From positions 32,001-96,000 of IMG/VR virus record IMGVR_UViG_3300027804_000045: 64,000 nucleotides of DNA; one strand, written 5' to 3'. Source of the stretch: a virus. Below the pieces are notes generated by a model, which was not told the DNA's origin, made no database searches, and saw only the letters and a list, made by a program, of their open reading frames with translations. The stretch's first letter is position 1. Each line of letters begins with the position of its first letter. Positions 4,129 through 59,932 of the stretch are shown in pieces. A program made the position numbers and the translations under genes.

Positions 4129-4888
4129 TTGGGTAAGGATCTATAACTTCGTTTTTTGTCATGTAATTATAGAATTTTTCGGCTATCTGTTTATGACCTA
4201 ACAACGTAGGATGTGAAGTCATTTCTACTCCCATACTGTTAATACTATAGAAACGCTTGTCATCACCACCAAACCAATTAAACTTTTTAACAAAATCCAT
4301 TTGCATTTTATCAAAATAAATTGTAGGATTAGCCATGCTTGAAAACAAATACCTTATATTATATTTTTCAAAAAACATACCCAATAGATTGATTTGTTGA
4401 AACCACAGCGCAGCCCAAAATTTATTATTAAATGTTTTATAATAACTTTCTAGAAACTGTTTGTCTATCTCGTCGGGACTGTCCCATGAAGGCCAATTAG
4501 GTATATCTCTTTCTCTAATAGTTTGATTTTGATTTACTAAAGTCCAACAGTCGTAATATTCGCTGAAATATTCTATCCTAGCAGGACCTGACCATTGTAT
4601 TACTGCTATCCATTCTGACATATCTTCATTGTTGTGAATTTTCGGTAGGAAAAAATCTAAAGTTTTACGGGCTATTCTATAATTGGAGCCACAACCCATG
4701 CTCTGATTATGAAATTCTGTACATGAAAATAAATCAGATAGATGCTTTGGCCAAGTCACACTTAAGCGCCATTTATTCAATTCTGTATCACAAGTATCAT
4801 TTAATAATTGGCCAGTATATTCATCGTGAAGTGTTTTTATTAGGTCGCCACCCCAGGTGAAACTACAACCATTGGCATATAATTTCAT
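4115..4888 (-). CDS. SGNH/GDSL-like protein (GCS-type)
   Basis: YANGCSFTWG, TWP, GCGSN, IQWS, HPT..GH motifs. Confidence 0.7.
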   Translation of the reverse strand: MKLYANGCSFTWGGDLIKTLHDEYTGQLLNDTCDTELNKWRLSVTWPKHLSDLFSCTEFHNQSMGCGSNYRIARKTLDFFLPKIHNNEDMSEWIAVIQWSGPARIEYFSEYYDCWTLVNQNQTIRERDIPNWPSWDSPDEIDKQFLESYYKTFNNKFWAALWFQQINLLGMFFEKYNIRYLFSSMANPTIYFDKMQMDFVKKFNWFGGDDKRFYSINSMGVEMTSHPTLLGHKQIAEKFYNYMTKNEVIDPYPNESI

Positions 4889-5346
4889 ACTCTATCGTCC
4901 ATTTCTTTCTTTATCCAACTATGCAAATTTTTATTTGCTTCTGCCTCGATGACACGTTCGCGTAATTCTGTAGTGCTGAAACTATGCTTACGTTTATTGA
5001 AATGAAATTTCATACCCATATCAATGCAAACTTCACGACCAGTAAAGTCACGATGTTCATATTCTTCACCTAGTATACGTATATTGATAGGATATGCTAA
5101 TAATATGTCAATCAATTCTTTTTCAGTGGCATAGACAACGATTTCGTCTACATACTTGCAAGCCTGTAATTGTGTGTACCTTTCAAATACGCTTTGCACA
5201 GGGCTATTTTTAGTAGGTCTATCAATAGTAGGATCAGTCTGTAGCCCTACGATGAGATAATCACAGACCTTCTTTGCATCTTTCAACATTAATATATGAC
5301 CTGCGTGAAACAGATCAAATGTTGCGCAAGTGAAGCCTACAGTCAT
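4885..5346 (-). CDS. cytidylyltransferase (glycerol-3-phosphate CT / TagD-like)
   Basis: FDLFHAGH (HIGH), GLQTDP, ER, YVDE, FSTTELR. Confidence 0.88.
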   Translation of the reverse strand: MTVGFTCATFDLFHAGHILMLKDAKKVCDYLIVGLQTDPTIDRPTKNSPVQSVFERYTQLQACKYVDEIVVYATEKELIDILLAYPINIRILGEEYEHRDFTGREVCIDMGMKFHFNKRKHSFSTTELRERVIEAEANKNLHSWIKKEMDDRV

Positions 5347-6309: not shown

Positions 6310-6469
6310 TCTTGTTCTCGTATTCTTCAGCAATCTTGTTCTTTAATGTTTCAAATAACGGATCCAATGCTATACTAGGATTTAATTCTAGTTCGGTATC
6401 AGTGATACAATTCTTGTCATAAATCACTACTACCTTATCACCCTTATTATTTTCAAATGTTAACTTCAT
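6302..6469 (-). CDS. hypothetical protein, 55 aa (not in ORF track)
   Basis: MKLTFENNKGDKVVVIYDK...EEYENKNG*; fills the sufE-queD gap with overlaps at both ends. Confidence 0.6.
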   Translation of the reverse strand: MKLTFENNKGDKVVVIYDKNCITDTELELNPSIALDPLFETLKNKIAEEYENKNG

Positions 6470-6891
6470 GTTGGTTCCCCTACAAATATTTTTGCCTGCT
6501 CTTTTACCATATTGAGCATGTTATATGCACCATTACGGCGATTCATGCTTAGTATATTACCTAAATCAAGTTCTGTCATCAGATTACGGTCATTCTCAAC
6601 GATATCTTTTGGACTGCTGCCACTATAGATATCGCTGACTAATGACACTGTGCCCTTCACGATAGCTGCATCACTATCACATAGATACTGAATAGTGCCA
6701 TTTTCATATTTAGGCACAAGCCATACTTGGCTCATGCACCCATGCACCTTGAAATTTTCTAATCTAAACTCTTCTGGAAATGGCTTTGCTTTACGTCCTA
6801 AGTCGATAAGGAACTTATAACGTTCAGTATTATCAACAAACATTGATAATATTGTTTTATACTGATCTATCTTTTGATTTATCAACGCCAT
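6466..6891 (-). CDS. sufE: Fe-S assembly sulfur acceptor
   Basis: RYKFLIDLG, VHGCMSQVWL, DSDAAIVKG, LSMNRRNG. Confidence 0.92.
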   Translation of the reverse strand: MALINQKIDQYKTILSMFVDNTERYKFLIDLGRKAKPFPEEFRLENFKVHGCMSQVWLVPKYENGTIQYLCDSDAAIVKGTVSLVSDIYSGSSPKDIVENDRNLMTELDLGNILSMNRRNGAYNMLNMVKEQAKIFVGEPT

Positions 6892-7094
6892 CCCCTCGCT
6901 ACGATTACTCCATATCTAAACATATGTTTTTCGACATCATGCTTTTCCAATGCTTCTTCAACTAATTTTATCATCTTTTCGCTATTACCACAAATGATTT
7001 CCAATGGAAATTCTTTTTGATTCATATAAACAAAATCTTCAACCATGACTGTTACATCACAGTGGCGAATACCATGTAAATCAAGCTTTCTCAT
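6882..7094 (-). CDS. stand-alone Smr-domain protein
   Basis: KLDLHG start, IICGNS. Confidence 0.75.
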   Translation of the reverse strand: MRKLDLHGIRHCDVTVMVEDFVYMNQKEFPLEIICGNSEKMIKLVEEALEKHDVEKHMFRYGVIVARGWR

Positions 7095-25826: not shown

Positions 25827-25831
25827 TAGAG

Positions 25832-25838
25832 TATTTAT
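25832..25838 (-). promoter_or_regulatory. late-type promoter 5 nt from ATG (leaderless)
   Basis: ATAAATA-ctcta-ATG, no RBS. Confidence 0.65.
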
Positions 25839-32127: not shown

Positions 32128-32858
32128 GCCCAAGGATCGGTAATGACTAATGTGCCATCACTACGTCTCATTACGTTTTCAGTATGAGGATCCCAACCAT
32201 ACCCTTTGCTATTTCCTACTTTATGTAATTTACGCAAGGTGTTGTAGAATATCTCATATTCTTTCAACTTGCTAGTATTTTGGGCAACAAACTCTTTCTG
32301 TAGTTTTTTAGCATTTGGGTACATGCCCTCGCCCGAATCTTTACTTATTATGTCTACGACTTTCGCCCAATCTAATTGCTTTGCTGAAAGATCGGCTAAC
32401 ATCCAAACTACGTATTCGTCTAATGAGCCCTTTTCTAATGGGTATAATTGTTCCATACCATACTGAACAAACGGTTGATCATTTATAGTGAAGTTATAAA
32501 CTTCACGACCATCTACTTGTTTGAATTGTGGCAAATTAGGTGCATTTAGTTTTTTGCTCAATTGATAAAACATTCTGAATGTTTCATGGGCAGTATTATC
32601 TTCTTTAGGCATGAGTATCTTGACTACAGTACCTTCATCTTTCATCCATACTTGCGCATCATAGCCGCTGCCTATAAACTTATACCCTGCTGCTTTCAAT
32701 TTGTTTTTTACAAATTTACTTAGATCCTCATCTTCATTTGTTTTCTTCTTACGACCTTGACAATGGGCGCGTTGACTAAAGCCTTTAGGATTATTACAAT
32801 TGATACTGCGCTTATATTTTTGTGACCACTTTTCTGATATGAATTCTTTACTGCGCAT
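32124..32858 (-). CDS. putative capsid-targeted protein-kinase-like enzyme
   Basis: MRSKEFISE; IGSGYDAQVW, VVKI, MEQL, DPHTENVM, ITDP. Confidence 0.75.
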   Translation of the reverse strand: MRSKEFISEKWSQKYKRSINCNNPKGFSQRAHCQGRKKKTNEDEDLSKFVKNKLKAAGYKFIGSGYDAQVWMKDEGTVVKILMPKEDNTAHETFRMFYQLSKKLNAPNLPQFKQVDGREVYNFTINDQPFVQYGMEQLYPLEKGSLDEYVVWMLADLSAKQLDWAKVVDIISKDSGEGMYPNAKKLQKEFVAQNTSKLKEYEIFYNTLRKLHKVGNSKGYGWDPHTENVMRRSDGTLVITDPWA

Positions 32859-33430
32859 TATTTTCTACCGATCTTCATATAGCGAGTATAATCAGTTTCC
32901 GGATCTTGTAATTCTTTTTTACCTAGATAATTTACAACAGTCATAGGAAACATATCGTCAAACTGTTTCATATCAGCAACTTTAGTTTTGCTCCCGCTCA
33001 CGCTATCACGACCCTGTACTACAACAGGCATACCTTCTGGTACAACATCATACCAATCTGTACTCATGTCATTAATGCTTGTGTTGATTACAATGCCTGG
33101 CTTATCGTATATTACATCTTTAGCATCGGTATGTAAAAATATTAATTGACCGTCGTTGAATAATGGTCTTAATAAACGTTCGCTTGTTTTTAATACACTA
33201 TCGTTAATATCTATCAATACGATATGATCAAAGACGATGCCGGCTTTCTGTAGGATATATGCTAGATTGCCATACCAGCTACCTAATACATAGATAGTTC
33301 TCGCGCATTTATTACCTAGACCTTCCTTAACTTTATTTGCCAGCCATTGTTTGCTAGTCACTAGATCGTCAGTTAAACTACCTTCTAGTGTATTTGGGCT
33401 GGCCTCGTTAGTAAGATCACGTATGCGCAT
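32858..33430 (-). CDS. putative capsid-targeted class I SAM-methyltransferase-like protein
   Basis: MRIRDLTNE; SKQWL, VLGSWYG, LIDIN, INTS, RYMKIG. Confidence 0.65.
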   Translation of the reverse strand: MRIRDLTNEASPNTLEGSLTDDLVTSKQWLANKVKEGLGNKCARTIYVLGSWYGNLAYILQKAGIVFDHIVLIDINDSVLKTSERLLRPLFNDGQLIFLHTDAKDVIYDKPGIVINTSINDMSTDWYDVVPEGMPVVVQGRDSVSGSKTKVADMKQFDDMFPMTVVNYLGKKELQDPETDYTRYMKIGRK

Positions 33431-33434
33431 TTCA

Positions 33435-33875
33435 TTATTGTCTATCTTTCTTAAGAACGCTCTTGATCATCCAATTATGTTTTGCATGTGCGTCTAATCT
33501 TTCAGCAAGATAATTCTCAATGCCTCTTTGATTTTCTTTGCCTGCTACAACAAAGCATTCTTGTAATAGACCTAATAATAATTCATTATCGCTCTGTAAT
33601 TCAGCGAACATGAGTTCGGCGCGTGGTACCATAGTTTGATCAGGAAGTATTGATAATTCTTTATAACGCTCAAAACTGCCGGGTGTATAACTATCTAATG
33701 TGCGGATGTACTCTGCTGTCTTATCTAAGCTAGCATATACTTCAGCGTATAGATCGCCGAAAAATTCATGGTATTGGGGAAAGTTTGGTCCTTCAACATT
33801 CCAATGAAAATACTGTGCCTTGATGACGAAGGCATATGAACTTGCTAATAATACTTTTAATTTATCTGCTAACAT
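33435..33875 (-). CDS. dps: DNA protection during starvation ferritin-like protein
   Basis: FHWNVEGPNFPQYH.FF..LY, D..AE.IR, H.K..WM. Confidence 0.93.
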   Translation of the reverse strand: MLADKLKVLLASSYAFVIKAQYFHWNVEGPNFPQYHEFFGDLYAEVYASLDKTAEYIRTLDSYTPGSFERYKELSILPDQTMVPRAELMFAELQSDNELLLGLLQECFVVAGKENQRGIENYLAERLDAHAKHNWMIKSVLKKDRQ

Positions 33876-34192: not shown

Positions 34193-37100
34193 TTAGCGTC
34201 CTTTAATTCCTTTTAATATTGAACTTTCTTTTGTTTTTTGTGGCTGAAGTTGTTGCATTCTCTTTTGTACTTCCGCATCAAGTTTAGGACGATCACGTTC
34301 TAAATAATGTCCCGGAACTTCTACTGGTTCTTCAGGCTGACTGATATCATAGGGTGCTGATTTAGGCGCCCCCGGCTTTTTATATACAGCATTCGGGTTT
34401 GGTACAGGTTTATCCTGTTTGTTCTTATCAGCATTCCTATCTAAAAATTTTTGTAATATTTCCATCTCATTCACCTGTGCTATTATATTATTTGTAGGAA
34501 CATCCGGGAAGTAATGTTTCATACCTTCTTTACCGTGTTCTTGTCTTACCATCAATCTTTGAATACTATCTAAATCTTTTGCACTGATTTTGCTGTCAGG
34601 ATCTAGTCCTAACTCACCAAAAGTATTTTTAATATATGTGTTTGTATCGTTGTTGTCTACTGGCGGGGCATACTTGTGAATCAACTGTCTGCCTGTCAAT
34701 CCTCTCTTTAATGCATCCAATGCTAACTGTCTGCGCATTGCTTCTTTGCCATCTTCGGGATTAGCAAATATAGCGAAACCATTTTTATCAAAGCCTACTG
34801 CTTTATCTAATACGTATCCTGGTCTACGTAGTGCGTCTGTACCGCGCAAATTGCCAGGATTATTTCTTGGATCTACAAAAGTACTGCCTGAGCTTCTACC
34901 ACTATCTGGATATCTGTTGCTAATTTTAGGTTCTACTTTTGGTATAGAAGCGACTGGTGCAACAGGCGCAATAATTGGTTCAGACTGTGTTGGTCTATTA
35001 TATATTATATCACTTAGCGTATCACCTTTTTGTACAACATAAGTATCGCCGGAAGGTAGTCTGATCTTTTGTCCTATATAAATTAAGTTAGGATCTTTAA
35101 TTTTATTTGCTGCTGCTATTTGTTTTATCAAATTTGCGTCATATTCTTTGACCGGCACTTTAGGTTCTATGGCTTTTACTTTAGCATAGTGATCCATTGC
35201 TGTGCCAGGTTTAGCAACTTTTCCAGCAGCAACTTTCCAACCCGGAGGTGCTGTTTGCTTAGTGATTGGATTTATTTTTGCAGGTTCTGGTCTGCCGCCT
35301 CTTACTGCTGCTGATGCCTTATCTAAAAATGCATTGATAGTTTTAGGACTTAATTCATTAACCTTCTCTGCTTTACCTTTTTTAGCATCCTGTTTAAATT
35401 GCAATCTAGTTGCGCGATTTATTCCGCTAAAACGCTTGTTGCCTTTTTGAAAGTCGCCTTCTTTATCAGCAGCACTTGCTTCTGTACCTGCCTTCTTTTT
35501 ATAACTTGCTAGAGTTTCAGGACTCAATTCATTTATCATCTCATCTTCAGGAGTCATAAGTGTAGTCTTAGATGTTTTTGCAGGTTGAGATGGTCTTTGA
35601 ATCTGATATTGGTTTTTAGGATCCGCGAACCAGGCACGTTGAATACTACTATCGGTTGGATCTTTGGCAGTTTCATCCCCTGCAAAATATTTACGCATAG
35701 TAGCGATACGTTTTGTTCCGCCTTTAATTGCGCTAGAAATACCTTCATCCATCTCATCTGGTTTAAGTTTAATCTTGCGATATGCTTGACCCATGCCACC
35801 TGGTGTATTGATTGTTTCTTCTATTTCAGGGGGCATCCATTTTTGATATTGTCCTGCTTTAGGCATATCGTCAAATGATGGAAGTGTTTGATCCCATGTT
35901 TTGTATTGGCCTGGCTTCATATCAGGACTCGCGGCTTGTCTAGATGTTTGAGCAGCAGGTTTTTTAACACCTATATCTTTATAATCAATATTATATTTGC
36001 GCATCAATGCGTTCATCTGTCTCTGTTGTATATCCATATCAACAGGATCTCCGCCGCGCATAATTGATTTAAACAATTGTGCTACTGTGTTTACCGCGCC
36101 TAGACGGCCGCCTGCTTCATCAAGTTCTTCGCCTAATCCAAAGCCGCCAACTGCACCTGCGCTATAACCTTCTTTGATACCTCGACCTATTGAACTTGTT
36201 GGTTTATAATTTTTAAAGTAATCTTTTACTGCTTGAGGATTGTCATAGGCAGCAAGTGCTGCTTCCGCACCTAATGACGCTGCTTGTGCTCCGAAATGGG
36301 GTACAAGGCCGGTAGTAGTAGCGACACCTCTTAATGCTGCACCAGCGTAATCTTTATTGCCTAAACGTTTTTGAAAATCTTTATAATCATCCTGTACAGT
36401 TAATAAAGTTGCTGCAGGTAAAACTCCCTTACCTATTGTTTTTGCTGCTTTCTTAATTGCGCCTGATGAAGGTTGAGGAACAGCAACAGCATCAGTATTT
36501 TCAAATGGCATTTCAGGTTGTGAATATTCAATCTTTCTTGGTCTTTGAGGTATTGCTACGTCAGTTGATCTGTTTCTATCGATAGGACCATTTGGTTCTG
36601 ACGTATCAGCACCTGGTGCACCTAATATATCAGAATCTTGCTCATCAGGTACAGCGACCGGAGGAGGAGTCATGATTGATGTGTCGCTAGATGGAGGTGC
36701 TGTTGTTATATCTACTGTATCTTTATCAGGCGAAGGCGGCGGAGGATTGTTGCTTGCGCTTGATGTAGGACCGCCACCGGATGGTGGAGGGGGAGGGGGA
36801 GGTGGAGCGGATGATGTCTGTGCGGGAGCAGTTGTTTTATCTCTTGGATCTGTACCTTTGACTAGCCCTGCCGCAGCGCCGCCGACAACACCTAATGCTG
36901 CTAATGCTGCTTTAACCTTTTTCGGTACAAGTGGAGATTTTGCGACATCATCAGCCCATTTACTGTTATCAGGAAGATTTTTCCACCAGCGCATGTCTGG
37001 TTCATAACCCTTTTTACCTATCTGTGCTCCTAAACTTTGTGGAGGTGCTGCAGGTGCCGCAGCAACAGATGGTGTCCTTGTAGTTTTAGGTTTTGTCGTT

Positions 37101-37750
37101 TTAGGTGTATCCGTACGTACAGGTTCCAATGCACCTGTCTGTGGATTTACTCTTGCTCTTGGTTTATCTGTAACAGGTTTATCTGTTGCTTGTGCAGCTT
37201 TTGCTGCTGCTCTTTGTTCGCGCTTACGTATAGCGTCAGGAGTTTGACTTAACTGACGACCTGACGTTTTTTCAGGTTGTGCTGCTTGTTGAGCTGGTTG
37301 ATTAGTGCCTTTTAATTTATCAATACCAAACGCTTGATCAACCTTTTGTCTAAATTCTGGATCATCAATATATTTTTGTATTTGATCACCTAAAATTGCG
37401 CCTAATGGTCCGCCGGCAAGTCCTCCAGCAATTTTACCTTTCCAACGCGCTTCTTCTAATTGTCCTTGCATTGCTAGGAAATCTTCATACATTTTAGTAG
37501 CTAGATTAACAAGATCGCTTGTATCAATTTCGGGATAGTTTGTTTTGATATTATTTTGATTTGCAGCTAACCATTTTGTTGCCTGACCTATCCATTCTTC
37601 AGCAGACAAATCAAAGTCTTGAACCATTGGTGTCATGATATAACGCTTTAATAGCATTTTTTCAGCAGCACTACCTTTTGGATTTTGACGTACAATATTT
37701 TGTATTTGGCGTGACGCTGCTTTATCTAAACCTTCAAAAATTTTACTCAT
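34193..37750 (-). CDS. large modular virion (head/ejection) polyprotein with permuted LysM and muramidase-like domain
   Basis: Repeated (L/V/I)xE junctions, ELSPxT repeats, DPNLIYIGQ/VQKGDTLS, RNNPGNLR...KYAP. Confidence 0.75.
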   Translation of the reverse strand: MSKIFEGLDKAASRQIQNIVRQNPKGSAAEKMLLKRYIMTPMVQDFDLSAEEWIGQATKWLAANQNNIKTNYPEIDTSDLVNLATKMYEDFLAMQGQLEEARWKGKIAGGLAGGPLGAILGDQIQKYIDDPEFRQKVDQAFGIDKLKGTNQPAQQAAQPEKTSGRQLSQTPDAIRKREQRAAAKAAQATDKPVTDKPRARVNPQTGALEPVRTDTPKTTKPKTTRTPSVAAAPAAPPQSLGAQIGKKGYEPDMRWWKNLPDNSKWADDVAKSPLVPKKVKAALAALGVVGGAAAGLVKGTDPRDKTTAPAQTSSAPPPPPPPPSGGGPTSSASNNPPPPSPDKDTVDITTAPPSSDTSIMTPPPVAVPDEQDSDILGAPGADTSEPNGPIDRNRSTDVAIPQRPRKIEYSQPEMPFENTDAVAVPQPSSGAIKKAAKTIGKGVLPAATLLTVQDDYKDFQKRLGNKDYAGAALRGVATTTGLVPHFGAQAASLGAEAALAAYDNPQAVKDYFKNYKPTSSIGRGIKEGYSAGAVGGFGLGEELDEAGGRLGAVNTVAQLFKSIMRGGDPVDMDIQQRQMNALMRKYNIDYKDIGVKKPAAQTSRQAASPDMKPGQYKTWDQTLPSFDDMPKAGQYQKWMPPEIEETINTPGGMGQAYRKIKLKPDEMDEGISSAIKGGTKRIATMRKYFAGDETAKDPTDSSIQRAWFADPKNQYQIQRPSQPAKTSKTTLMTPEDEMINELSPETLASYKKKAGTEASAADKEGDFQKGNKRFSGINRATRLQFKQDAKKGKAEKVNELSPKTINAFLDKASAAVRGGRPEPAKINPITKQTAPPGWKVAAGKVAKPGTAMDHYAKVKAIEPKVPVKEYDANLIKQIAAANKIKDPNLIYIGQKIRLPSGDTYVVQKGDTLSDIIYNRPTQSEPIIAPVAPVASIPKVEPKISNRYPDSGRSSGSTFVDPRNNPGNLRGTDALRRPGYVLDKAVGFDKNGFAIFANPEDGKEAMRRQLALDALKRGLTGRQLIHKYAPPVDNNDTNTYIKNTFGELGLDPDSKISAKDLDSIQRLMVRQEHGKEGMKHYFPDVPTNNIIAQVNEMEILQKFLDRNADKNKQDKPVPNPNAVYKKPGAPKSAPYDISQPEEPVEVPGHYLERDRPKLDAEVQKRMQQLQPQKTKESSILKGIKGR

Positions 37751-38112
37751 TTGCTATCTCTCTTACTTTTTGTAGCAACATTCTTTGCTTTGCCACTACG
37801 TTCTGGATTAGGATCTTCTCTGCGCTTACGTGCTGCTGCGCTGGCGCGACCTTTTTTTCCTAGACTATGTGCTTTGCTCTGTGGTAAGCACTTAGGCTTA
37901 CCCTCGCTATTACTACCTCTAGCACATGCTCCGCGAATCTTTCCATCTGGTCCAAAACGAACCCACTTCTCTTTGAACCACTTGCGTAAATCTTCTTCTA
38001 ATTCTTGTTCAGATACTTTAACACAATTTGGAACCATACGACCACCTTTAGGCTTCATGCCTTTCTGTGTGTATCCTTTCCAACATGCTTCTAGTATCTG
38101 GCGATATCTCAT
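37747..38112 (-). CDS. putative capsid-targeted basic two-module protein
   Basis: MRYRQILEA; CWKGY...VPNCVK and EDLRKWFKEKWV...PKCLP modules. Confidence 0.75.
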   Translation of the reverse strand: MRYRQILEACWKGYTQKGMKPKGGRMVPNCVKVSEQELEEDLRKWFKEKWVRFGPDGKIRGACARGSNSEGKPKCLPQSKAHSLGKKGRASAAARKRREDPNPERSGKAKNVATKSKRDSK

Positions 38113-39515
38113 TTTTTGCTCTTGTTGCCCCAGTTCTTTGCGCCTTTCTTACGGCATTTAACTAACGCACCGCTAGCATATGCTGATGGCCATACTTTGT
38201 AGCGGCTCTTGACTTTATGATAGCAAGCATCTTTGGCTTCAGCGATACTTTCTTCACTGTAAGAAGGTCCGCCGCACTCGACACATCTTTCTTCCTTAAC
38301 ATCTATATTATCAGTTGGACTACGTGAATAACTAAATTCTTTGCCCTTATTCCAATCTTTTTGCCTCATAGTGCTGACAGCTTTTTCTGCTGCTTGTAGA
38401 GTATTAAATGTGTATGGTTCTTTGTTTTTATCTTTTACAATTTTTCCATTTATGCGAACATACCAAGGACCTTGATTATATTTTCTTGCGCGTTCCTCTT
38501 CACCGGCTAATTCTGCATCCATTTCTCTTCTTTTGAAATCTCTTCTTTCTTGATCCATCGCCGATTGTTCACGGCGTTCATAGTCAAGTGGATTATAAGG
38601 TCTTGATTCTTCAAAATTGCTCATGCCACCTGCCAACACTCCAGCACTTTCTTTTTGTATTTTGTCTGATGCCGCTTTACCTGCCGCACCAGCTCCGGCT
38701 GCTGCACCTACTTTTGTTGCTGTCTTGATATTCTTGACGTTTTGATTAGTTTGATTTGCTATAGCGCGTTGTACTTCTACTGTTTTAGGTAAATCTCCTA
38801 TTTGTTTTTTTGCCGCTGCATGTGCTAGTTTACCTACAACATTTGCTAAACCTTCCGCAGCGTAATCATGTTCTAAACTATCGGCTACGCTGTTTAGATA
38901 GTCAGAAGCTAATGTGATGTATGATTGCTGCCAGCCCATCAAGCCTTCATCTTCTGTGCGGTTTTCTATCATCTTATAGATACGCATAGCGTCTTTAGCA
39001 GCAGCATATAAATCACTACGCGCCATCTCTACTTCATGGTCACGGCGATCTGCCTTATGCGGAATGAAACTTGTATCTTTCATACGGCGCATGCCTGGGA
39101 CTACGATTAAATCATCTTCCTTTAATTCATCTTCCTTAATAGGCTCGTCTAATTGTTTAGCAGCATTTTTATCTGTGTACCCAGTATCGTGCCATGCTTT
39201 AGAACCTGTTTTAGTGCTAGGTGCTGGTTTAGGTGCAGATGTTGGTTTGGGCGCAGCCGCTGTATTTGATTTAGTAAAAAATTCTTTAGTTTTATTATAT
39301 ACTTTTTGAAATTCGTCAGCATCCATATGCTTAAGGTTATAGGCAAGTGCCTTCATAGCACCTTCGCTGATTTGATTAGCGAACTTCTTTTTATTCTTTT
39401 TAACAGGCGGACTTTTAGGTGGTTTTTCAACCCTTGTTTCAATTTCACCTAGTGGTTTCGCTACTGTTGCGATAGAACCTGCGACAGTACTTTCAAAAAT
39501 ATCATTAACTTTCAT
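38109..39515 (-). CDS. modular virion polyprotein
   Basis: MKVNDIFES; DHEVEMARSDL module; KDACYHKVKSRYKVWPSAYASG (DUF5872-like) module. Confidence 0.75.
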   Translation of the reverse strand: MKVNDIFESTVAGSIATVAKPLGEIETRVEKPPKSPPVKKNKKKFANQISEGAMKALAYNLKHMDADEFQKVYNKTKEFFTKSNTAAAPKPTSAPKPAPSTKTGSKAWHDTGYTDKNAAKQLDEPIKEDELKEDDLIVVPGMRRMKDTSFIPHKADRRDHEVEMARSDLYAAAKDAMRIYKMIENRTEDEGLMGWQQSYITLASDYLNSVADSLEHDYAAEGLANVVGKLAHAAAKKQIGDLPKTVEVQRAIANQTNQNVKNIKTATKVGAAAGAGAAGKAASDKIQKESAGVLAGGMSNFEESRPYNPLDYERREQSAMDQERRDFKRREMDAELAGEEERARKYNQGPWYVRINGKIVKDKNKEPYTFNTLQAAEKAVSTMRQKDWNKGKEFSYSRSPTDNIDVKEERCVECGGPSYSEESIAEAKDACYHKVKSRYKVWPSAYASGALVKCRKKGAKNWGNKSKK

Positions 39516-39538
39516 ATAGATAATCCGCAATAATATAG

Positions 39539-39545
39539 TATTTAT
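39539..39545 (-). promoter_or_regulatory. late-type promoter
   Basis: GATAAATAC just after the upstream terminator. Confidence 0.65.
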
Positions 39546-39570
39546 CTATAATTCGGATATATGTTGCACA

Positions 39571-39600
39571 AAAGAAAAAGCCCCTTTCGGGGCTCTCTCT
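39571..39600 (-). terminator. intrinsic terminator
   Basis: AGCCCC-gaaa-GGGGCT then TTTTCTTT. Confidence 0.85.
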
Positions 39601-40520: not shown

Positions 40521-41216
40521 TTATTTTTCTGGTAGATAATCTAGGCTTTCTGTTTTAGGCTTTTTACCAGCTTTTTTCATATTGATTGCTGTAGCAGCTT
40601 GTTGCGCTGGATTTGCCGCCTCATCAACTGTTTCTGTGCCCATGCCTGCGTCCAGTAATTTTACAACGTTAGTTGCTAATTTAGGATTACTCTGAGTAGC
40701 AGGATACAAACTCATAACCATTGCTGTTTTTTGTCGCATATTTAAAGTAGGCCAGTTGTCTCTAATTTCTGTCGCACTTTTAATTCCTGGACCAAAAGTT
40801 ATGGTTGGTAAATATGTGATATATGCTTGTTTTCCGTAAGGTTTTACATTTTTTCCAGTATAAGGTTGAAAGTAACTAGGTGTGCCATCTTTTTTTGTTC
40901 CACCTGGTTTAGGTTCTTCTAACCTATCTTTTTCGCTGCGCACAAAAATAAGTACATCTTCATTAGGATTGAAATGATCAGTGATTTCTTTTGGTCTAAA
41001 AGGACTTTTTACCTGTATAAAATGACTAGGATCTACACCGGCAACTCTTGCCAGTTTCTCTTTAATATTAAATGGAAACGGTCTTTCTTTTTGATCGTTA
41101 GTCGCAGCTACAAACACTTCAGCATCTGGAAATTGTTCTTTTGCGGCCTGGTAAAGGCTGTAATGCCCTGCATGAAAAGGATGAAAACCACCTGGCATTA
41201 CAACAATCTGTTTCAT
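40521..41216 (-). CDS. HIGH-family nucleotidyltransferase with appended basic peptide
   Basis: PGGFHPFHAGH, SATEIR; tail VDE-AANPAQQAA.AI.MKKAGKKPK. Confidence 0.75.
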   Translation of the reverse strand: MKQIVVMPGGFHPFHAGHYSLYQAAKEQFPDAEVFVAATNDQKERPFPFNIKEKLARVAGVDPSHFIQVKSPFRPKEITDHFNPNEDVLIFVRSEKDRLEEPKPGGTKKDGTPSYFQPYTGKNVKPYGKQAYITYLPTITFGPGIKSATEIRDNWPTLNMRQKTAMVMSLYPATQSNPKLATNVVKLLDAGMGTETVDEAANPAQQAATAINMKKAGKKPKTESLDYLPEK

Positions 41217-41771: not shown

Positions 41772-41805
41772 AAATACTCCATAATTACTAGAGTATTTAT
41801 CTGTT

Positions 41806-42503: not shown

Positions 42504-44765
42504 TCAGCCTTCTACTTGTATGATTCCGTCGTCGCCCACTTTGGCTGTAACTTTATTTGAAACCACAAACTCAATCTTATTATCAACAAGATTTGCCATG
42601 ATATTTGCATTTTTGATTTGTTCAAACAATACCTTTTTACTCAATGGTACGCGAATCAATTCATCAATCTTACGTGCTAGAGGACGTGCGCCCATCTTGT
42701 TATCATAACCTTTCTCAGCAAGATATTCAACAACAGGCTCAGCTAAGTTTAGCGTGATGTTATGTTTTTCAAGCAAGAGTTTCTTGACATCTTCTGTAAA
42801 CTTGACAACAATCTTCTTAATCGAAAGCATGTCCAACTTCTTGAACTTGCAAATTTTATCAAGACGATTTCTGAATTCAGGCTTGAAGAAATCCTTCAAT
42901 GCCTTATCATCTTCACCGGTCTTAGCCAACTCACCGAAACCGATATTATTACGTTCACCATCAGCACTACCAAGATTGCTAGTGAGAATAATGATTGAAT
43001 TCTTACAAGACACTTCCTTACCATTGCTACCGGTCACTCGACCTTCATCAAGTATCTGCAAGAAGATGTTGAAGATATCTGGATGTGCCTTTTCGACTTC
43101 ATCGAACAACATCACGCTATGTGGGTTCTTACTCAAATCACTGATCAAGCGACCACCTTGCACTTGGCTGTCGCCGAAACCAACATAACCGGGAGGGGGA
43201 CCGATCAATGAACTTACAGAGTGCTTCTCGCTATATTCACTCATGTCATACTTGAGCAAAGGCATTTCAAGATTTTTACTCAATAACTTTGCTAGTTCGG
43301 TCTTGCCAGTACCCGTTGGACCAAGGAACAAAAAGCTCGCAATGGGTTTTGTTTCATTGTTGATTCCGGCGAAACTGACATAAACTCTATCTAGTACTTC
43401 GCTGACTGCCTCATCTTGTCCATACAATTTATCTTTGACGTTACTTTCAAGATTATTAATCTTGTCGAAATTGTCGCCGTTAAGCTTATCAGCAGGCACT
43501 CCAGTATATTTTTCAACCTGTTCGTAAATTAATTCCTTTGTGATTTCAGCATTTTTGTTTTCTAATACACGTTGCTTGGCACAGGCTGCATCAAGCAGGT
43601 CGATGCTCTTGTCAGGATTTTTACGATCATGTATATAGCGGTCAGCATTTTCTACCGAGGCTTTAATGGCTTCATCAGTAATTTTTACGCTATGGAAATC
43701 ATTGAGTCTATCTCGCAAACCATTAAGGATGCGAATCGTTGTGTCGTGGCTTGGTTCATCAACCGCTACTCTAAAGAATCGTCGCATCAATGCGCGATCC
43801 TTTTCGAAACTCTCATAGAATTCTTCCCAAGTAGTTGAAGCAATTACCTTGAGCGTACCCTTAGTGATTGCGGGTTTTATCATATTTGCAAAATCTATGC
43901 TACCATTGTTGCTGCTACCAGCACCGCTCATAGTATGTGCTTCGTCTATGAAAAGAATTGCCTTCTTCTTTGTGTTGAGTGCTTCGATAACCTGCTTTAC
44001 CTTTTCTTCAAAGTCACCGCGATATCTACTACCCGCTAAGAGGCTTCCAATCTCAAGGCTATATAATGCATGATCCTGTAAAAATTCTGGAACTTCTTCA
44101 TTAACGATGGCTCTTGCTATACCTTCAGCGATAGCAGTCTTACCAACGCCGGGATCACCTACCATCAATACGTTGCTCTTGAAACGCTTGGCAAGCACAT
44201 TGATGATGTCATCAATCTCTTTATGACGACCGATAACAGGTTCTAACTTATCCTGTCTAGCAAGGTCTGTAAGATTAGTAGTAAACTGTTCAAGAATTTC
44301 TTCTGCTTGTGTATCAGTTAAATTACTGAATTCGCCGCCCTTATAATGACGCTGCCAATAAGCCAAAAATTCTTGTTTATTCACACCATACTTTAACAAG
44401 AAATAATGTGCATGTGTATTACCTTCGCTGATAATACTTAAGTAGAGATCGACCGTAGTCACTTGTCTACGACCAGTAAATAATACCTGTGTGACACTAC
44501 GATTCATCACACGTTCAAGGGCGTTAGTTTTTCTAGGAGTCTCATTATCAGAGCGTTCAATACTTGTTAAACTCTGTAGGTAGGCACGAATCTCGTCAAT
44601 CATCAAATCTGTCTCACATCCAAAACCATTCAAGCATTTCTTGAATGGGGCAAATGTGATAAGACCAAGCAATAAATGCTCAATGGTCACATACTCATGC
44701 TTAAATTCCTTAGCATAAGAAATAGATTGTTCGATGATGTTTTCGATTTCGGGTGAATTATTCAT
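42504..44765 (-). CDS. clpA: Clp ATPase (ClpA-type, two AAA+ modules)
   Basis: EHLLL, GDPGVGKT, FIDEAH, GPTGTGKTE, DMSEY, IGF loop, MGARPL. Confidence 0.95.
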   Translation of the reverse strand: MNNSPEIENIIEQSISYAKEFKHEYVTIEHLLLGLITFAPFKKCLNGFGCETDLMIDEIRAYLQSLTSIERSDNETPRKTNALERVMNRSVTQVLFTGRRQVTTVDLYLSIISEGNTHAHYFLLKYGVNKQEFLAYWQRHYKGGEFSNLTDTQAEEILEQFTTNLTDLARQDKLEPVIGRHKEIDDIINVLAKRFKSNVLMVGDPGVGKTAIAEGIARAIVNEEVPEFLQDHALYSLEIGSLLAGSRYRGDFEEKVKQVIEALNTKKKAILFIDEAHTMSGAGSSNNGSIDFANMIKPAITKGTLKVIASTTWEEFYESFEKDRALMRRFFRVAVDEPSHDTTIRILNGLRDRLNDFHSVKITDEAIKASVENADRYIHDRKNPDKSIDLLDAACAKQRVLENKNAEITKELIYEQVEKYTGVPADKLNGDNFDKINNLESNVKDKLYGQDEAVSEVLDRVYVSFAGINNETKPIASFLFLGPTGTGKTELAKLLSKNLEMPLLKYDMSEYSEKHSVSSLIGPPPGYVGFGDSQVQGGRLISDLSKNPHSVMLFDEVEKAHPDIFNIFLQILDEGRVTGSNGKEVSCKNSIIILTSNLGSADGERNNIGFGELAKTGEDDKALKDFFKPEFRNRLDKICKFKKLDMLSIKKIVVKFTEDVKKLLLEKHNITLNLAEPVVEYLAEKGYDNKMGARPLARKIDELIRVPLSKKVLFEQIKNANIMANLVDNKIEFVVSNKVTAKVGDDGIIQVEG

Positions 44766-46961: not shown

Positions 46962-47123
46962 AGAGTATTTATCAGAAAACAGGGATATTATAAAGGAAGA
47001 TATTGGACAACAGTGTTATATTTATGCATTAAATCTTGCCAAATACTATGTCATTATTGCGAAGGTTAACTCTTTAAATATTTAAGAGATGACAATTTAT
47101 CTCATTCACAAAGGAGACATCAC

Positions 47124-59878: not shown

Positions 59879-59932
59879 CTATCCAGTATCCTTTAATATA
59901 GTATTTATCGTTTTTATAGCAAAGCAATTGCC

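Follow-up and report, generated by a model that had tools for sequence, protein, structure and literature searches.

In a 64,000-nucleotide stretch of viral DNA, hereafter the window (bases 32001-96000 of the 150,743-bp IMG/VR virus contig IMGVR_UViG_3300027804_000045; CheckV completeness 43%), three minus-strand genes joined by ATGA overlaps (38109-39515, 37747-38112 and 34193-37750) probably encode capsid-targeted cargo polyproteins that are processed by the head protease; we infer the cutting itself. Judged from the sequences, the junctions between their modules, [LIVM]-x-E, match the consensus L/I-x-E of the T4 protease gp21 in motif, in leaders and in the strict use of Glu. Cleavage by T4 gp21 follows L/I-x-E and is prevented when P1 is Asp (PMC9026906). 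The T4 capsid-targeting sequence (CTS) consists of 10 residues, MKTYQEFIAE (PMC8442874), and the window leaders MKVNDIFE/, MRYRQILE/, MSKIFE/ and MRSKEFISE/ (a slash marks a predicted cut) agree with the T4 leader, which is about 10 amino acids (aa) long and ends in L/I-x-E.

The contig is, on gene content, a fragment of a giant T4-superfamily myovirus, because its large terminase shares 50% identity with the enzyme of Pseudomonas jumbo phage PA5oct and 43% with that of GAP32, and because it carries a T4-type DNA polymerase, clamp loader, tail sheath and tail tube. Neither a gp21-type protease gene (Pfam Peptidase_S77) nor a gp23-type capsid gene was found on this 43%-complete contig, and the head module is therefore presumably on the missing part.

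Four Cys-pair modules were followed by pattern: M1 (CWxGY...PNC), M2 (KWFxxKWVRFG...C...PKC), M3 (ACYxKVKxRYxVWPSAYASGALVKC) and M4 (KWSxKYKxSINC...AHC). The open reading frame of the first gene (p473) extends to 39530; its start is almost certainly the ATG at 39515, giving 468 aa beginning MKVNDIFE, the length also found in protein databases. If only conserved sites are cut, the predicted products of p473 are, in order, the leader, a 43-aa basic peptide (residues 9-51, net charge +5), a 77-aa helical domain (52-128), the pentapeptide DELKE from the tandem site IKE/DELKE/, a 275-aa product with the DHEVEMAR motif, an 18-aa acidic CxxC peptide (M5) and the 42-aa M3 (+12). The second gene (p121, 121 aa) would give the leader MRYRQILE/, the M1 hairpin (ACWKGY...PNCV, +5), QELEE from the acidic spacer VSE/QELEE/, and M2 (DLRKWFKEKWVRFG...C...PKC..., +17). 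The third (p1185, 1185 aa) would release the leader MSKIFE/, a 94-aa mobile module (7-100, ending LEE/), a 427-aa Gly-zipper and Pro-rich protein (+12), five small pieces bounded by IKE/, LDE/, IEE/ and MDE/, two ELSP peptides (INE/LSPETLASY... and VNE/LSPKTINAF..., +6 and +8; 35144-35527) ending at VKE/Y, a 226-aa LysM+NNPGN domain (residues 870-1095; 34466-35143) and a 90-aa C-terminal tail. All eleven sites listed by the first-pass annotation are present where it placed them in the three coupled genes. Its view that the units are of 20-150 aa needs revision, as the predicted products range from 5 to 427 aa and are not all micro-peptides. One listed site, FEE/S, falls outside the (L/I/V/M)xE pattern at P3, and three or four of the listed sites are chance matches.

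The same three-gene layout is found in cyanophage S-SSM7 (gp114 and two neighbours; 494, 121 and 995 aa) with the modules reshuffled. A locus search with p121 gave more than 572 relatives, 80 of which were kept. Of the 164 unique contexts upstream of M1-M4, 155 have an [LIVM]xE motif that ends 0-6 residues ahead of the module. Random positions of the same proteins give 13.3%; [LIVM]xD occurs in 3%. [LIVM]xE is ahead of M3 (38112-38237; AKDACYHKVKSRYKVWPSAYASGALVKCRKKG..., 95% identical in cyanophages) in 43 of 50 contexts and, as [LIV]xE, ahead of M4 in 22 of 22 and of the ELSP modules in 28 of 28 unique contexts among the p1185 phmmer matches. Site by site, the motif also precedes the DDLIV module, which carries DHEVEMAR, in 12 of 12 contexts, NPAQQAA in 6 of 7, and TINTPGG (IEE, VKE, LGE), AGGRLG and MEILQKF in all three contexts each. 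At the start of a small protein, the module comes after M-(K/R)-x-x-(E/D)-(I/F)-(L/I/V)-x-E; within a long chain, it comes after an acidic linker such as EEQLDE/.

Conservation within one protein agrees with this. In an alignment of 61 diverse p473 homologues, Glu at P1 is invariant or nearly so at residues 8, 51, 128, 133 and 426, while P2 drifts. The CTS-like leader MKVNDIFE/ (39492-39515) ends in [LIVMF]xE in 59 of 60 homologues with a hypervariable P2, and ISE/G at residue 51 (39363-39371), on the edge of the first folded helical domain, is [LIVMF]xE in 60 of 60 (ISE in 29, FYE in 23, among others). Both tandem sites (residues 126-133; 39117-39140), which lie in a disordered stretch ahead of DDLIVVPG...DHEVEMAR, occur in all 61 of the homologues, although P3 and P2 vary; site 128 reads LKE, IQE, VSE, IKE, VNE, VAE and so on. 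The DHEVEMAR helical module that follows (38856-39116) is the most conserved core of gene 1, with 70-89% identity in more than 120 proteins of 260-767 aa. M5 (38238-38291), the acidic CxxCGG peptide ERCVECGGPSYSEESIAE/, ends in the site preceding M3, and this site (426) is kept in 57 of 61 homologues. Many basic modules were also seen to end in KK(T)NE or KKTDE just before the next acidic [LIV]xE head (L049, L086, L089, L094; window 32733-32750). With Thr at P3, this tail is outside the L/I-x-E rule and may be a second type of junction. A QGVAE/G junction, which occurs in some contexts of the relatives, was looked for in the window and is absent there.

Modules are found both as stand-alone genes with leaders and within longer proteins. 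The 207 distinct proteins in which two or more modules can be recognized show 36 module orders and 35 ordered neighbour pairs, of which M5-M3 is the commonest; the proposal of a shufflable library of modules is borne out by this. In IMG/VR, the close relatives of the window are one near-identical contig and two diverged syntenic contigs (L010 and L011), and an alignment-based locus search gave no p1185 orthologues beyond these three. L010 has an 80-aa insertion between GLGE/ and EIDE/AGG and a 77-aa insertion between PLEE/ and KVKE/TINTPGG; no obvious DNA repeats flank the two insertions. The ELSP pair, which ends at PVKE/YDAN, is present in the window and L011 and missing from L010, and the VKE/ and VNE/ that bound the LysM+NNPGN domain are kept in both L010 and L011. 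Residues of about 19-100 of p1185 (ending QLEE/A) occur in L011 near the C-terminus of the first gene product, ending KLEE/D, and the third L011 protein retains only the leader MSKISE/G from the N-terminal region of p1185. L011 has proteins of 896 and 678 aa where the window has 1185 aa; the 678-aa protein, which is not a kinase, begins MKAKDFVSE/KWTEKYKKSINC, the same leader and M4 as the window kinase. In the L011 counterpart of p121 (6387-6962), a 70-aa insert lies between M1 and M2. By reading, without a family search, this insert resembles a peptidoglycan-binding domain (PG_binding_1-like), which suggests that wall-binding domains belong to the same module pool.

Breakpoints were also located by a phmmer search of p1185 against 1.84 billion representative proteins (2007 matches). 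Match starts peak at 12.6, 639, 735.5 and 870.5 and match ends at 102 and 795.5, all within 7 aa of p1185 sites (6, 645, 741 and 869 for the starts, and 100 and 799 for the ends); the peaks at 735.5 and 795.5 concern the ELSP modules. Six of 12 interior peaks are thus near sites, compared with about two by chance (our own estimate from 12 sites, 15-aa windows and 1185 residues).

Peptidase_S77 lies beside the gp23-type capsid gene in all four large carriers of p121 homologues (267-352 kb, 76-100% complete), and occurs in PA5oct and S-SSM7 as well. The capsid propeptide of one relative reads MSKILLE/...ALLE/...VILE/...LLAE/SSAG, with LLAE/S opposite what we take to be the maturation cut of T4 gp23.

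One cyanophage homologue has been detected in virions. In cyanophage S-CREM2, ORF160, a cytidylyltransferase (ORF154) and a kinase (ORF14) were found by mass spectrometry in CsCl-purified virions (PMC10665884, Table 3). S-CREM2 ORF160 (297 aa) is built in the same manner, with MSSLSE/... followed by KLSE/A-M2, NLEE/KKN-M1 and EISE/GKKD-M3, and in S-B68, S-E7 and S-B43 the homologues carry the annotation 'structural protein'. On either side of the window operon there is a nucleotidyltransferase or a kinase, although their orthology to ORF154 and ORF14 is not established. Both appear to use the same grammar of leaders and sites, and the add-on units that had been reported on them are real. The kinase begins (32733-32858) with the leader MRSKEFISE/ and the Cys-pair module M4 (ISE/KWSQKYKRSINC...AHC..., +9), ending KTNE/, and the nucleotidyltransferase ends (40524-40619) with VDE/AANPAQQAA...KTE/, that is VDE/AANPAQQAATAINMKKAGKKPKTE/, and a conserved tail SLDYLPEK. 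Where the window has VDE/AANPAQQAA...KTE/, L010 carries an unrelated module of 125 aa, set between ISE/ and LTE/. The tail, (S/T)xDYLPEK (window 40524-40547, minus strand), is kept in the window, L010 and L011 despite the swapped module ahead of it, and may be a C-terminal signal or a processing remnant.

Several observations weigh against the processing of these proteins, and some of them favour an alternative in which the proteins stay full length in the virion or the infected cell and [LIVM]xE is a structural motif, such as the end of an acidic amphipathic linker helix or an N-cap, read by no protease. We regard this alternative as unlikely. Cleavage of the three proteins is a matter of inference. 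The number of motifs is at chance level, with 12 in p1185 (9.8 +/- 2.8 expected from composition), 9 in p473 (6.4 expected) and 3 in p121 (1.1 expected), and p1185 has 1.0 motif per 100 aa, less than the 1.6 that is average for the proteome. As site number is what composition predicts, many sites are not evidence in themselves, and enrichment by count was rejected as an argument; the idea that (L/I/V/M)xE sites are module borders holds for their placement and conservation, which are far beyond chance, and not for their raw number. Spacing between motif and module is fixed for M2 and ELSP, so there the motif could belong to the module itself. In the AlphaFold2 (AF2) model of p121, the M1-M2 spacer VSEQELEE is a low-confidence helix. 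M5 nearly always adjoins M3, the two having four Cys jointly, and they might form one metal-binding four-Cys unit despite the conserved site between them. Sites 24, 124 and 184 of p473 are not kept in the 61-homologue alignment, in which 8, 51, 128, 133 and 426 are conserved; MIE/N at 184, inside the DHEVEMAR domain, survives in only 10 of 61. The expected coincidence of homology breakpoints with xxE sites was likewise only partial: it is seen in half of the p1185 peaks and in several insertions and swaps, and it fails for peaks at 715, 922, 961, 815, 1071 and 1082, away from sites, and for three p473 indels (37, about 70 and 22 aa) that do not abut [LIVM]xE, although two of them end in x-x-E. 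Off-site peaks mostly concern the NNPGN domain, which is also known in tape-measure and endolysin contexts outside heads. The protease and capsid genes were not found on the three closest contigs either, all of which are fragments. The authors of the S-CREM2 study warn that abundant non-structural proteins may co-purify with virions (PMC10665884). A test for site depletion inside modules (0 observed, 3.3 expected) was discarded as circular, because the segments had been defined by the sites.

A structural motif accounts poorly for other features. In hundreds of related phage contigs, a single motif stands ahead of eight or more modules that are unrelated to one another, and its distance to the module varies for M1 (1-3 aa) and M3 (3-6 aa). 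At the heads of M1-M4, P1 is always Glu, never Asp or Gln; L, I, V or M is found at P3, with F in one M3 subgroup, and P2 is unconstrained. Stand-alone forms bear T4 CTS-like leaders. Conserved sites in the AF2 model of p473 are in predicted disorder, at a predicted local distance difference test score (pLDDT) below 50, as in the leader, or, at residue 51, precisely where a confidently modelled domain begins, and the non-conserved site 184 lies within a helix. In the p121 model the leader is disordered, M1 forms a beta-hairpin and M2 a small sheet with a helix; the model has no significant match in a fold search of the PDB (best E of about 1), and matches to defensin-like hairpins (E of about 3) were set aside as not meaningful. 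The motif is also gone where a module sits in a phage that lacks the protease. Actinomycetia phage DSL-LC01 (complete 129-kb genome) has no Peptidase_S77, and there M1 lies in a 347-aa protein after ...SALTSASGP, with neither motif nor leader. Roseobacter phage CRP-7 (58 kb) has no Peptidase_S77 either, and its M3 is a bare 47-aa protein, MATTKTKKDACY..., again with neither. Both outcomes match the protease model and not a structural motif, though these negative controls are two phages only.

Internal motifs could instead be relics of gene fusion, derived from the leaders of formerly separate small genes, with a single cut at the N-terminal leader as in the T4 internal proteins (IPs). Such an origin would suit modules that exist both alone with leaders and inside longer proteins, and genes that split or fuse between relatives, as in the 896 and 678 aa of L011 versus the 1185 aa of the window. 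Disuse, however, predicts decay, and the internal Glu at P1 and hydrophobic residue at P3 stay invariant in 61 diverged sequences that differ at P2 and in the flanks. In addition, internal heads are acidic linkers of the EEQLDE/ type rather than copies of M-K/R leaders, and tandem sites suggest selection for efficient cutting; relics are thus quite improbable.

The LysM+NNPGN domain of p1185 is putatively peptidoglycan-binding or lytic. Residues 875-899 match Pfam LysM (PF01476) with 32.3 bits (gathering cut-off 20.9 bits), through the C-terminal half of the profile only, and the region has matches to endolysin and tape-measure protein domains in PHROG and to the N-terminus of Gp29 in PDB entry 9vvp (E 1e-3). 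A role for p1185 in the tail, as a tape-measure or lumen protein that bears a lytic domain and is processed, if at all, by another protease, was rejected as highly improbable: the PHROG matches, tblastn matches to tape-measure regions of small phages and glycine-zipper segments speak for it, but the matches are limited to the single NNPGN domain (about residues 940-1095, or about 900-1095 for the PHROG matches), the gene overlaps the coupled pair p473 and p121 and lies outside the tail gene block, over 30 kb away from the genes for sheath and tube, and p1185 follows the same grammar of leader and sites and trades modules with gene 1.

If the three proteins are processed polyproteins, the T4-type leader of each precursor, M-(K/R)-x(3-6)-[LIV]-x-E, would bring it to the prohead, inside the scaffolding core. 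As the head matures, exposed [LIVM]-x-E sites within the disordered acidic linkers would be cut after Glu by the gp21-type serine protease that the lineage encodes. This would release small, strongly basic Cys-pair peptides (M1-M4, net charge +5 to +17), Lys-rich ELSP peptides and larger products, namely the Gly-zipper and Pro-rich protein of about 430 aa, the 275-aa DHEVEMAR product and the wall-binding LysM+NNPGN domain. As in T4, the acidic parts, leaders and spacers, would disappear, and basic products would remain with the DNA and probably enter the cell alongside it. Modules are indeed basic, and spacers and most leaders are acidic or neutral, a pattern that fits T4, where propeptides leave and basic proteins stay with the DNA. 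Possible roles for the products include charge neutralization of DNA, co-injection, counter-defence and passage through the cell wall. With its own site at each head, a module could be inserted, lost or swapped, or a gene split, and the neighbours would be undisturbed; the many module orders would follow from modules that move with their own head site.

The use of a CTS and the gp21 site is classic T4 biology, and head proteins with several cuts are already known from T4 cores and phiKZ-like phages. Like T4 IPI, IPII, IPIII and Alt, the window proteins open with a short leader whose end is L/I-x-E, would be basic cargo packed along with the DNA and belong to a lineage that has a gp21-type protease, and gene content varies between relatives in both cases; Alt is an enzyme cargo, and the kinase and nucleotidyltransferase described here may be likewise. 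Unlike the T4 internal proteins, which have a single module and one cut, the window proteins are chains of up to about a dozen modules with internal sites, and their modules are Cys-pair mini-proteins shared with cyanophages. Pfam, PHROG and NCBIfam searches gave no similarity to IPI, IPII, IPIII or Alt, only families of unknown function, LysM and NNPGN. T4 gp22, gp67 and gp68 and the inner-body and ejection proteins of phiKZ and SPN3US are cut several times after Glu, with redundant neighbouring sites, and some of the resulting fragments stay in the head while others are expelled (PMC9026906). Those proteins are scaffolds or paralogous families, whereas here mosaics of unrelated, shuffled modules are found; furthermore, phiKZ-type proteases use S/A/G-x-E, and P3 here is L, I, V or M.

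The only Pfam family that resembles the Cys-pair modules is DUF5872 (PF19197), which has no known function and whose profile holds M3-like (11-43) and M2-like (45-85) parts in one unit, in reverse order relative to the window. With p121 it scored 15.2 bits and with the M3 region 17.0 bits, short of the gathering cut-off of 27.5 bits. An analogy may be drawn with the adenovirus core precursors (pVII and pX/mu), in which one chain gives several products, including small basic DNA-associated peptides, by action of a virion protease at maturation. The protease, virus realm and sequences are nevertheless unrelated, and, unlike the products of adenovirus and other viral polyproteins, those predicted here are accessory cargo and not replication or capsid machinery. 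A full-text literature search found no description of multi-module cargo polyproteins of this kind, nor of the Cys-pair modules.

Upstream of the operon (39537-39600, minus strand), a terminator hairpin follows a glycosyltransferase gene and a AGATAAATACT motif stands 22 nucleotides before the ATG of gene 1. The T4 late promoter TATAAATA was not found upstream of the operon and is depleted in the window (1 copy, 8.5 expected). The related ATAAATACT has 6 copies in the window (1.7 expected), a number reached in 0 of 100 shuffles. Five of these, found by sequence search on the minus strand (25830-25838, 39537-39545, 41792-41800, 46964-46972 and 59900-59908), are on the coding strand directly 5' of gene starts, about 22 or 3-4 nucleotides before the ATG, and ATAAATACT may be the core of the late promoter in this lineage.

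Between the operon and the kinase are minus-strand genes for a Dps/ferritin-like protein (33435-33875, 146 aa) and a methyltransferase-like protein with the leader MRIRDLTNE/A (32858-33430, 190 aa), an order kept in L010 and L011. Elsewhere in the window there is a gene for a ClpA/ClpB-like AAA+ chaperone of 753 aa (42504-44765, minus strand), and a protein encoded outside the window (contig 4325-4924) has a ClpP-like N-terminus (MSLVPIVLEQTSRGERSYDIY...); the two could constitute a phage-borne Clp system. All of these names come from reading the sequences, without family searches.

There is about an even chance that T4-superfamily giant phages and cyanomyoviruses share a large and undescribed class of capsid-delivered polyproteins, in which the head-protease site would be a universal junction for small plug-in modules of any type, from Cys-pair basic mini-proteins and wall-binding domains to enzyme tags, that are packed, cut free and injected, forming a combinatorial cargo that evolves by cassette exchange. 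If the cuts occur, the head contents of giant phages and cyanophages would be much richer than gene lists suggest. A single operon would then yield some twenty mature products, and many of these would be very small basic Cys-pair peptides of a kind that escapes ordinary trypsin-based proteomics and gene annotation. A minimal protease site would allow quick shuffling of injected cargo, with a bearing on counter-defence, on DNA condensation in very large heads and on cell-wall passage. The grammar of leaders and sites could also serve to predict head cargo in metagenomic T4-like phages, and, as cultured cyanophages carry the same modules, the idea is directly testable.

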